A DNA stretch of 64,000 bases from Escherichia coli (GCF_044324875.1 NZ_CP172185.1), one strand, 5' to 3'; numbered from the stretch's first letter, positions 8,046 through 38,227 are shown. Notes: a model not told the origin generated them from the letters alone. Translations and numbers: made by a program.

Positions 8046-8400
8046 ATTCGATACCTCAATGCTTACAACAGAAAAGTATACTTTTACGAAGTTCGCCTTT
8101 GCAGGAGTATATAAAGTTATCACTGGATGCAAGAGCCGGAAATCATGTATATCAGGATCAACTTTGTAATTCAATAACATATTATCCAGTGAAAAAGTAA
8201 GTATATTTAAGCTGGGGAAGGAGAAGGGGGACTTGATTTGATATTTTCATCAATAATATTATTTTTCCTCCTCCATTATTCATTCAGACCTGGTTCCGGG
8301 CGTAATTCCTAGACTGGCCCCCTGAATCTCCAGACAACCAGTATCACTTAAATAAGTGATAGTCTTAATACTAGTTTTTAGACTAGTCATTGGAGAACAG

Positions 8401-8766
8401 ATGATTGATGTCTTAGGGCCGGAGAAACGCAGACGGCGTACCACACAGGAAAAGATCGCAATTGTTCAGCAGAGCTTTGAACCGGGGATGACGGTCTCCC
8501 TCGTTGCCCGGCAACATGGTGTAGCAGCCAGCCAGTTATTTCTCTGGCGTAAGCAATACCAGGAAGGAAGTCTTACTGCTGTCGCCGCCGGAGAACAGGT
8601 TGTTCCTGCCTCTGAACTTGCTGCCGCCATGAAGCAGATTAAAGAACTCCAGCGCCTGCTCGGCAAGAAAACGATGGAAAATGAACTCCTCAAAGAAGCC
8701 GTTGAATATGGACGGGCAAAAAAGTGGATAGCGCACGCGCCCTTATTGCCCGGGGATGGGGAGTAA
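8401..8766 (+). CDS. insC: IS2 transposase OrfA (InsC)
   Basis: [56 protein letters not shown]; 121 aa. Confidence 0.9.
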
Positions 8767-9629
8767 GCTTAGTCAGCCGTTGTCTCCGGGTGTCGCGTGC
8801 GCAGTTGCACGTCATTCTCAGACGAACCGATGACTGGATGGATGGCCGCCGCAGTCGTCACACTGATGATACGGATGTGCTTCTCCGTATACACCATGTT
8901 ATCGGAGAGCTGCCAACGTATGGTTATCGTCGGGTATGGGCGCTGCTTCGCAGACAGGCAGAACTTGATGGTATGCCTGCGATCAATGCCAAACGTGTTT
9001 ACCGGATCATGCGCCAGAATGCGCTGTTGCTTGAGCGAAAACCTGCTGTACCGCCATCGAAACGGGCACATACAGGCAGAGTGGCTGTGAAAGAAAGTAA
9101 TCAGCGATGGTGCTCTGACGGGTTCGAGTTCCGCTGTGATAACGGAGAAAAACTGCGAGTCACGTTCGCGCTGGACTGCTGTGACCGTGAGGCACTGCAC
9201 TGGGCGGTCACTACGGGCGGCTTCAACAGTGAAACAGTACAGGACGTCATGCTGGGAGCGGTGGAACGCCGCTTCGGCAACGAGCTTCCGGCGTCTCCAG
9301 TAGAGTGGCTGACGGATAATGGTTCATGCTACCGGGCTAATGAAACACGGCAGTTTGCCCGGATGTTGGGGCTTGAACCGAAGAGCACGGCGGTGCGGAG
9401 TCCGGAGAGTAACGGCATAGCAGAGAGCTTCGTGAAAACGATAAAGCGTGACTACATCAGTGTCATGCCCAAACCAGACGGGTTAACGGCAGCAAAGAAC
9501 CTTGCAGAGGCGTTCGAGCATTATAACGAATGGCATCCGCATAGTGCACTGGGTTATCGCTCGCCACGGGAATATCTACGGCAGCAAGCCAGTAATGGGT
9601 TAAGTGATAACAGGTGTCTGGAAATATAG
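8724..9629 (+). CDS. insD: IS2 transposase OrfB (InsD), DDE catalytic domain
   Basis: 301-aa ORF overlapping insC; WCSDGFEF...HWAVTTGG...WLTDNGSCY...HSALGYRSP. Confidence 0.9.
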
Positions 9630-10149
9630 GGGCAAATCCAATTCCGATTTCTCTGTTGAAGCGATGCATTTATATTTAAATATTCACCTGTCATTGAATT
9701 TTATTTGAAATAGGAGAAAATCTCCTCCTGTACTACAGATAACCCGGAATGTTCCTCGAAAGAAAATTCTGGCGCAGAATTCACGCCCGGTTCTGTTCAA
9801 CATCATGCAGGATAACGATACCGAAACGTTAAACTCTGGCAATTCTCGTGTTATACACAGGCAGGAGTGATTACTACGGTAAGAATTGCTGAAAAGGGGA
9901 GAACACTGAAGGCCTTATTCGCGAAGAATAAAGGAGACATTTCATGTAAATTATTATCAGAGATAACCTTCTCCAGGCGCTTTTGTTCGCTTCCTGAATT
10001 GCTACCTGATACATATTTACGGGATGCCAGCCTGGTGACTATAACTCCGAAAAGACCGATTATTGTATTGCGTGCATCCGGCATGTTTACAATGTACGCT
10101 GGTATCTAACGGAGTCTGACACAGATGCACGCAGGTGTATATTTTAACG

Positions 10150-10950
10150 TAATTATCCGGAAAGAACAGTATATTTTAATGCGGGAGTTGCATGAGCGGT
10201 ATACGGGAGAAACTATCAGACCATGGGAGCTACAGAGGTGCTTAAGTCTCGTAACATTATAATCTGCTCACCTGACTGGTGCTATTCTCACCTCAACACC
10301 AATGCACAAATAGCCTGGCTTATCGTTAATAAAAGTTACTCATACCGGGAATCCAGTGAAGCTATGAATGTCGGTTCCTATACACTGGGGGCATGGGTAC
10401 GTCAGCTCAGGCGGGAACGTCAGGATACCACGTCTTCTGCATCACCACTCACATCAGAGTAGCAACGTATTCATGAACTGGAAAAGCAGGTTCGTCGCCT
10501 GGAGGAACAAAAAACGATATTAAAAAGCTACAGTGCTCTTGATATCCTTCCCACTGAACGGTTTACGATAGTTACCAGACTGAGCGGCGACACACGATTG
10601 TCAGTCTTTGCGCTGCTCTGGATGCTCATTGCAGCAGTTCCGGCACTGGCAGAATCGGCTCAATACGATTGATCCGGCGCGAATCAAATTGTATAGCGAA
10701 ACAGTCCGGGTCTGGAACCAGAGTCGGGGTTCCGCAGGTGCGCGTGCTCTGGCAGATATGCTGATTCAAAATGGTATCCCGATGAGCAGTTGTCGTGCCA
10801 GGCGGCTGATGAAGCATCTGAACCTGAGAAGTGCTCAGCCCGGAAAATATCAGTACAAAAATGCCCGCCAGGAGCATACCAGCCTGCCGAGTCTGCTTGA
10901 GTGTCGGTTTTCTGTGCTGGAGGCCGAGCAGGTATGGATTCTTAAATAAA
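10150..10950 (+). pseudogene. IS3-family (IS911/IS3-group-like) transposase remnant, truncated orfA and orfB pieces
   Basis: OrfA-like [21 protein letters not shown]...[17 protein letters not shown] in two frames; OrfB-like [47 protein letters not shown] ending before the DDE core. Confidence 0.55.
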
Positions 10951-36191: not shown

Positions 36192-36282
36192 TAGACTGGC
36201 CCCCTGAATCTCCAGACAACCAGTATCACTTAAATAAGTGATAGTCTTAATACTAGTTTTTAGACTAGTCATTGGAGAACAG

Positions 36283-36648
36283 ATGATTGATGTCTTAGGG
36301 CCGGAGAAACGCAGACGGCGTACCACACAGGAAAAGATCGCAATTGTTCAGCAGAGCTTTGAACCGGGGATGACGGTCTCCCTCGTTGCCCGGCAACATG
36401 GTGTAGCAGCCAGCCAGTTATTTCTCTGGCGTAAGCAATACCAGGAAGGAAGTCTTACTGCTGTCGCCGCCGGAGAACAGGTTGTTCCTGCCTCTGAACT
36501 TGCTGCCGCCATGAAGCAGATTAAAGAACTCCAGCGCCTGCTCGGCAAGAAAACGATGGAAAATGAACTCCTCAAAGAAGCCGTTGAATATGGACGGGCA
36601 AAAAAGTGGATAGCGCACGCGCCCTTATTGCCCGGGGATGGGGAGTAA
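36283..36648 (+). CDS. insC: IS2 transposase OrfA (InsC)
   Basis: Identical translation to 8401-8766. Confidence 0.9.
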
Positions 36649-37511
36649 GCTTAGTCAGCCGTTGTCTCCGGGTGTCGCGTGCGCAGTTGCACGTCATTCT
36701 CAGACGAACCGATGACTGGATGGATGGCCGCCGCAGTCGTCACACTGATGATACGGATGTGCTTCTCCGTATACACCATGTTATCGGAGAGCTGCCAACG
36801 TATGGTTATCGTCGGGTATGGGCGCTGCTTCGCAGACAGGCAGAACTTGATGGTATGCCTGCGATCAATGCCAAACGTGTTTACCGGATCATGCGCCAGA
36901 ATGCGCTGTTGCTTGAGCGAAAACCTGCTGTACCGCCATCGAAACGGGCACATACAGGCAGAGTGGCTGTGAAAGAAAGTAATCAGCGATGGTGCTCTGA
37001 CGGGTTCGAGTTCCGCTGTGATAACGGAGAAAAACTGCGAGTCACGTTCGCGCTGGACTGCTGTGACCGTGAGGCACTGCACTGGGCGGTCACTACGGGC
37101 GGCTTCAACAGTGAAACAGTACAGGACGTCATGCTGGGAGCGGTGGAACGCCGCTTCGGCAACGAGCTTCCGGCGTCTCCAGTAGAGTGGCTGACGGATA
37201 ATGGTTCATGCTACCGGGCTAATGAAACACGGCAGTTTGCCCGGATGTTGGGGCTTGAACCGAAGAGCACGGCGGTGCGGAGTCCGGAGAGTAACGGCAT
37301 AGCAGAGAGCTTCGTGAAAACGATAAAGCGTGACTACATCAGTGTCATGCCCAAACCAGACGGGTTAACGGCAGCAAAGAACCTTGCAGAGGCGTTCGAG
37401 CATTATAACGAATGGCATCCGCATAGTGCACTGGGTTATCGCTCGCCACGGGAATATCTACGGCAGCAAGCCAGTAATGGGTTAAGTGATAACAGGTGTC
37501 TGGAAATATAG
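36606..37511 (+). CDS. insD: IS2 transposase OrfB (InsD)
   Basis: Identical translation to 8724-9629. Confidence 0.9.
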
Positions 37512-38227
37512 GGGCAAATCCAATATGTGTAGAATTATCTATTTAAAAAGATATGTATATAACACTTAATAAAAACATGTGTATATAGTATCATACCGAC
37601 ATTCTCAACATCTTCAGACTTCCATACATACTGGGTGTTGATTTCTCACTTTTACAGCCAGCATGGAGTTTTCTGTCCTAAAAACAGAGCAGATTTACTC
37701 TGGAATTATTTTTCTGCCCCCGTATTTCAGGCCCCAGAAAAGACAATCCGAAGCAAACCGTTTGTCAGCCTCCATATCATCTTTTACCCCCGGAAAGTGA
37801 TCGCGTTTTACAACCAGAATGACAGCCATACTGATTATGTCGTCTCCCGGCCCCCTTCACATATAACATGCATGTCTGTCATTGCTTACTGCTCCACATG
37901 ACCGGATTTCACATACAGGATGCACATTCAGTGTTTTTATCGCCACTATAACAGACAGATTACTGTCGTCTTTACTCTTCAGATTGTTAATCTGACCACA
38001 AGAACAGCCGAACGGCAAAACGCCCTCCACAAGGGGCACATGAACCATAGTTGATAGCATGTTTTTCCTAATCAAGGAATAGTTCAGGAATATTTTATTG
38101 CATTAATAACTGGCGAATAATCGTTCTGTGAACACAAAATGCTTTTATTTGTAAATTTTATTGCATTGCACTCGTTTTATTGATATGGGGTTTAATAACA
38201 GATAACCCGGAAAGAAGGAGAAAACAG

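Follow-up and report, generated by a model that had tools for sequence, protein, structure and literature searches.

Two identical IS2 copies, very probably separate and recent arrivals in an Escherichia coli chromosomal island

IS2 elements carry imperfect terminal repeats of 42 bp on the left and 41 bp on the right, encode OrfA and OrfB, and transpose by copy-out, passing through figure-of-eight and minicircle stages before they insert (PMC3299598). The K-12 MG1655 copy IS2A (381260-382590, NC_000913.3), which belongs to the IS2 group of the IS3 family of insertion sequences (ISs), is 1331 bp long, has overlapping orfA and orfB with an A6G motif and makes a 5-bp target duplication (ATTAC). 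IS copies can also flank cargo, as in the IS1-bounded composite transposon on the IncF plasmid pSA186_2, and can recombine with each other: IS-IS recombination occurs in E. coli at about 4.5e-5 per genome per generation, most events involving copies 1-3 kb apart, mainly IS1 and IS5 (PMC5009759), and IS-bounded deletions and duplications have been described in mutation-accumulation and long-term evolution lines (PMC5009759, PMC4173774). Here we analyze two IS2 copies in a 64,000-nucleotide stretch of an E. coli chromosome (GCF_044324875.1, NZ_CP172185.1; hereafter the window, with positions counted from its first letter), and ask how they came to bracket some 26.5 kb of island DNA.

Two IS2 copies and their empty target sites

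A repeat scan with base-by-base comparison placed the two 1331-bp elements at 8310-9640 (copy 1) and 36192-37522 (copy 2), both on the + strand in direct orientation and without a mismatch between them (0/1331). Similarity breaks off with the element tips (it extends 0 bp to the left and 2 bp to the right, the latter by chance), and each copy is bracketed by its own 5-bp target duplication, ATTCC for copy 1 and ATATG for copy 2, the chance probability of each such match being 1/1024. Two claims of an earlier sequence-only reading of the window, namely that the copies are identical and directly oriented and that they have separate matching duplications, thus hold with exact coordinates and at both junctions of each copy. 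The pair measures 27,882 bp from start to start, with an interior of 26,551 bp and a total span of 29,213 bp, and both target sites are AT-rich, the local G+C content within 200 bp being 37% at site 1 and 32% at site 2, compared to 51% for the window. The features of the two copies are:

8305..8309, target duplication ATTCC, left copy (right copy at 9641-9645)
8310..9640, + strand, IS2 copy 1, left terminal repeat from 8310 (TAGACTGG...), right terminal repeat to 9640 (...CAAATCCA)
8401..8766, + strand, copy 1 orfA (121 amino acids, InsC/TnpA), with the A6G frameshift motif at 8718-8724
8724..9629, + strand, copy 1 orfB (301 amino acids), catalytic part of the transposase by NCBIfam match
36187..36191, target duplication ATATG, left copy (right copy at 37523-37527)
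36192..37522, + strand, IS2 copy 2, identical to copy 1, with orfA at 36283-36648 and orfB at 36606-37511

Both elements are IS2 in all respects testable by sequence. The orfA product matches the NCBIfam model 'IS2 repressor TnpA' with 276 bits (cut-off 229) and the orfB product matches 'IS2 transposase TnpB' with 713 bits (cut-off 597). The length of about 1331 bp, the termini (whose first and last 10 bp are those of K-12 IS2A in both copies), the overlapping orfA and orfB with A6G at 8718 and the 5-bp duplication are those of the IS2 group, and a programmed frameshift is annotated by RefSeq in homologous IS2 copies. Aligned base by base, the window IS2 is 98.1% identical to K-12 IS2A, the 25 differing positions of 1331 lying mostly in orfB.

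For the empty-site queries, we joined both flanks of each IS2, retaining a single pentamer, and searched the complete E. coli set (n=5,426); 20 further loci, found in other assemblies by the exact sequence of two window proteins, brought the loci compared to 32 in all (L001-L032). Empty site 1 with a single ATTCC was contiguous in 116 of the complete genomes, strain 135 showing 100% identity over 1200 nt across it, and empty site 2 was found in strain GF43 at 100% identity over 1200 nt (100.000% over 4664 nt). The exact 60-mer of empty site 1 occurred in 5 of the 32 loci (L001, L004, L013, L014 and L018), three of which (L013, L014 and L018) are 99.93-99.98% identical to the window in the left flank, and that of empty site 2 in 11 (L004, L006 and L024-L032), nine of them among the 20 added loci. 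An occupied IS2 junction at either site was present in 0/32 loci, neither exact insertion was found in the complete genomes, and the whole IS2-interior-IS2 unit was carried by no other genome of that set. An exact 25-mer of junction 1 also gave 0 hits in a collection with one genome per species, a result of no weight because E. coli is hardly represented there. GF43 is colinear with window positions 293-46169 at 97.8-100% identity, reaching 99.5-100% over the full interval of the pair, and has the flank-interior-flank order without either IS2; it differs from the window by the two IS2, an IS3-family element (21361-22670), an IS21-family element (23649-26287), the repeat number of an adhesin gene and a 48-bp tandem duplication.

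Because flanks and interior stand in the same order in relatives that have both sites empty, the interior must have preceded both IS2. We conclude that the two copies are very probably independent, recent and strain-specific insertions into an already assembled chromosomal island. The 26.5-kb interior was in place before IS2 arrived, and two IS2 then very probably transposed separately into AT-rich non-coding stretches, each generating its own 5-bp duplication. Judging from established IS2 biology, the OrfAB transposase would be produced by a -1 frameshift at A6G, and the element would be copied out via a figure-of-eight and a minicircle and then pasted in. Two recent IS2 insertions in an IS-rich island are ordinary, already known biology.

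Age of the insertions and competing explanations

That both insertions are recent and strain-specific follows from the identity of the copies, as IS2 of other strains differ from the window IS2 by 0.5-4%, and from the existence of near-identical relatives that have neither insertion. Nothing contradicts this reading, though it has its limits: the identity of the copies could also be kept by gene conversion, and neither copy need be the parent of the other. If gene conversion, which can homogenize IS copies within one genome, had kept two older insertions identical, identity alone would give no date; yet relatives with 99.9-100% identical flanks have both sites empty, and neither insertion is common to any of the complete genomes or other assemblies examined, which makes older insertions quite improbable. 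Nor can copy 2 be claimed to stem from a local hop, since new IS2 insertions in mutation-accumulation lines showed no excess within 50 kb of existing copies (PMC5009759).

The arrangement of cargo genes between two IS2 of the same orientation is what would be expected if the whole 29.2-kb block had been inserted as a single composite transposon, and part of that cargo (window 10020-26900) is indeed mobile between plasmids and chromosomes, yet it is bounded there by IS1 and not by IS2. In such a transposon, as in the pSA186_2 module, IS copies flank cargo, but unlike it the window pair shares no duplication at its outer ends and occurs at no second place: the outer flanks mismatch (ATTCC left of copy 1, ATATG right of copy 2), a separate duplication brackets each copy with none around the unit as a whole, and GF43 and other genomes contain the cargo without IS2. 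Since the outer pentamers differ and the unit is absent elsewhere, arrival as one unit is excluded for practical purposes, and the composite-transposon explanation is already effectively refuted, its probability being vanishingly small. The sequence-only reading had likewise claimed separate insertions rather than the ends of a composite transposon, and the single-pentamer empty sites and the colinearity of GF43 bear it out. Assemblers do err at perfectly identical repeats, and the second copy might be taken for an assembly artefact or a segmental duplication rather than a product of transposition; however, the homology ends exactly at the IS2 termini, matching pentamers stand at both junctions of each copy, and the sequences flanking each copy are contiguous in relatives, a pattern that neither a misjoin nor a segmental duplication would give. 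Because of this contiguity we regard misassembly and segmental duplication as excluded, or at most extremely improbable, and retain two separate transpositions as the origin of the pair.

The bracketed interior and two IS2 relics

The genes of the interior were identified from the RefSeq annotation of the colinear strains GF43 and TUM9803, mapped by BLAST:

9646..36186, interior, about 26.5 kb
10318-11101, ISEc31-like fragment
11623-12552, - strand, LysR regulator
13630-20055, AllH/FdrA/YlbE(AllG)/permease/carbamate-kinase cluster
21361..22670, + strand, IS3-family element, 1310 bp, carrying an ALIL frameshift pseudoknot (21696-21812), located in the ISL3 pseudogene; absent from GF43
23649..26287, - strand, IS21-family element of 2.6 kb (istA/istB), inside an IS1 copy; absent from GF43
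27837-29438, - strand, YadA-like adhesin
34421-35152, - strand, Gp2-family island gene
within 9646..36186, ankyrin protein, ISL3 pseudogene, IS1 pieces, and ProQ and AlpA island genes

The complete-genome RefSeq set does not include the source strain, and its best match to the interior covers 87% of that stretch. The left two-thirds of the interior (window 10020-26900) are 99.8% identical to plasmid pSA186_2 (L012, 19121-35298), with the shared order ISEc31-like fragment, solo IS2 end, LysR, ankyrin gene, AllH/FdrA/AllG/permease/carbamate-kinase cluster, ISL3 and IS1. On the plasmid this module is bounded by IS1 copies and splits a serine acetyltransferase gene, and thus constitutes an IS1 composite transposon that moves between plasmid and chromosome. 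Repeats occur at two places in the interior. The adhesin open reading frame contains 99-nt tandem repeats and a 309-nt repeat (28321-28844), and its length varies by strain, the longest adhesin reading frame in the window having 533 amino acids and the annotated proteins 421 (GF43) and 515 (TUM9803). The ISL3 pseudogene contains at least three tandem copies of the 18-nt unit CTGTAATACGGGATAAGC (21188-21256), immediately to the left of where the IS3-family element is inserted.

Apart from the two complete copies, the window holds two IS2-related remnants:

11259..11278, - strand, solo 20-bp IS2 right-end relic, with unrelated sequence downstream of the LysR gene in place of the IS2 interior side (right)
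324..409, - strand, 86-bp internally deleted IS2-like relic without target duplication, outside the range of the sequence-only reading

The solo end, TGGATTTGCCCCTATATTTC, is an exact match to the last 20 bp of IS2 in inverted orientation, a match that chance did not produce in 100 shuffles, and is placed between the ISEc31-like fragment and the LysR gene, within the IS1-bounded module on pSA186_2. The 801-bp stretch around it occurs uninterrupted in 181 genomes, several of which, IncF plasmids included, match it at 100% identity. Being unchanged (100% identity) in chromosomes as well as on IncF plasmids, the solo end predates both IS2 copies and is unrelated to them; it is old cargo of the IS1-bounded module and no sign of recent local IS2 activity. 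IS2 transposase cuts at the tips of the element, so that a truncation 20 bp into the terminal repeat does not bear its signature. The 20-bp IS2 end that the sequence-only reading had pointed out at 11259 is thus real, whereas the earlier IS2-associated deletion that it was said to record is not borne out, given an old, conserved end and a break away from the tip. Querying with the left flank joined to reverse-complemented IS2, we found no intact IS2 at the position of the solo end; where hits had full coverage, the flank had been joined wrongly to an IS2 nearby, or an IS2 adjoined unrelated ISEc31 copies. As no alternative context of the junction was found, the deleted sequence is not reconstructable.

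The relic at 324-409, the fourth IS2-related piece of the window and overlooked before, combines a perfect 22-bp IS2 left end (388-409) with a diverged right-end-like arm (324-374, 82% over 51 nt). We rejected the idea of a multi-copy miniature element, as the relic occurs at a single locus, in 63 complete genomes.

Recombination between the copies and IS2 insertions in other strains

Being direct repeats of 1.3 kb at a distance of 27.9 kb, the two IS2 may, as the sequence-only reading had claimed, serve as a substrate for deletion or amplification, a reasonable expectation from general biology (PMC5009759). The geometry resembles that of the IS-bounded rearrangements in laboratory lines mentioned above, with identical direct repeats around island DNA that looks dispensable, because the site-1 region is matched at all in only 219 of the 5,426 complete genomes and the toxin-antitoxin pairs of the island lie outside the interior, to the right of copy 2. 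Recombination between the copies would delete one IS2 and the 26.5-kb interior, leaving a single IS2 with ATTCC on its left and ATATG on its right; alternatively, it would duplicate the segment. Two results limit this expectation. A query made of the left flank, IS2 and the right flank found the deletion product in 0/5,426 complete genomes at a coverage of at least 80%, a search that is uninformative insofar as no other genome has both copies, and IS2 took part in just 2 of 98 IS recombination events in mutation-accumulation lines (PMC5009759). The events recorded there were mostly between IS1 or IS5 copies 1-3 kb apart, whereas the window pair is IS2 and no recombinant was seen.

In three loci (L015-L017, about 13759-15093), an IS2 follows window-equivalent position 10187 without a target duplication, with GGGAG on its left and CATCG or CCCAC on its right; the right flanks are unrelated to the window and belong to a DctM/DctQ...yaiO region or to an MFS/sulfatase region. 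These loci look like an IS2-bounded rearrangement in relatives and lend indirect support to the notion that IS2 rearranges this area. The IS2 pair marks a 26.5-kb stretch that could be lost or amplified in one recombination step, at stake being an oxamate/carbamate-type catabolic cluster, the YadA-like adhesin and island regulators. The two IS2 junctions are strain-specific markers usable in typing, with otherwise little significance beyond strain bookkeeping.

Other strains also carry IS2 close to the two sites. Drawing on ten loci (L002, L003, L004, L005, L006, L007, L010 and L015-L017) and on window positions 8305-10548 and 35412-37841, we counted at least six independent IS2 insertions across strains in about 0.9 kb around site 1 (IS2 itself excluded) and at least four in about 1.1 kb around site 2. 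In window-equivalent positions, the targets of the first zone are 8305-8309, 9860-9864 (GGCAG, strain GPEC1035), 10183-10187, 10195-10199 and about 10544-10548 (CCTCC, SM107), with different IS2 variants occupying AGCGG at 10195-10199 in opposite orientations (+ in AR13438, - in GF43). Those of the second zone are about 35412-35436 (CAACC, SFE8), 36153-36157 (CTTAC, Ch1), 36187-36191 and 37837-37841 (ATGTC, ECNB21-M121). The IS2 variants of the other strains differ, and each has its own duplication, except for the IS2 after 10187. An apparent bias toward one orientation near site 2 was set aside as a search artefact, as only same-strand IS2 pieces join flanks, and both orientations occur near site 1.

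According to one proposal, DNA curvature rather than a sequence motif guides the target choice of IS2 (PMC3299598), and no motif is apparent in IS2 target duplications (PMC5009759); the AT-richness of both sites fits the curvature proposal (PMC3299598). That the two AT-rich non-coding stretches are true regional IS2 hot spots is nonetheless a tentative suggestion, which we hold to be rather doubtful on balance, and the clustering may equally reflect neutral DNA tolerant of insertions. Were there a true excess over neutral DNA, it would imply structural target choice by IS2, for example of curved or nucleoid-protein-bound DNA, and such island segments would be predictable rearrangement breakpoints. 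The clustering at both sites is, in this sense, a modest lead on IS2 target choice.

Island context and borders

The right third of the window is core genome (glnP, glnQ, ybiO, rlmF, fiu, ybiX, ybiC, ybiB, dinG and rhlE), and the remainder a mosaic island rich in ISs. Similarity to the GF43 island ends at 46169, and glnP begins at 46556 with no glnH between, whereas in GF43 the same island continues to ParDE, an integrase fragment and cadC; the two strains thus differ in the right border of the island or in where it sits on the chromosome. The 48-bp tandem duplication by which the window differs from GF43 is perfect (5046-5141), is situated where two ABC-transporter permease genes overlap and extends the second permease frame to 294 amino acids, compared to 278 in GF43; in the assembly collection, 58 blocks have the 294-residue form, so that this form marks a lineage. 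In the core-genome part, Rfam matches above the gathering score were obtained for naRNA4, a REP-derived nucleoid-associated RNA (55872-55942), and for the ES036 small RNA (62615-62657).

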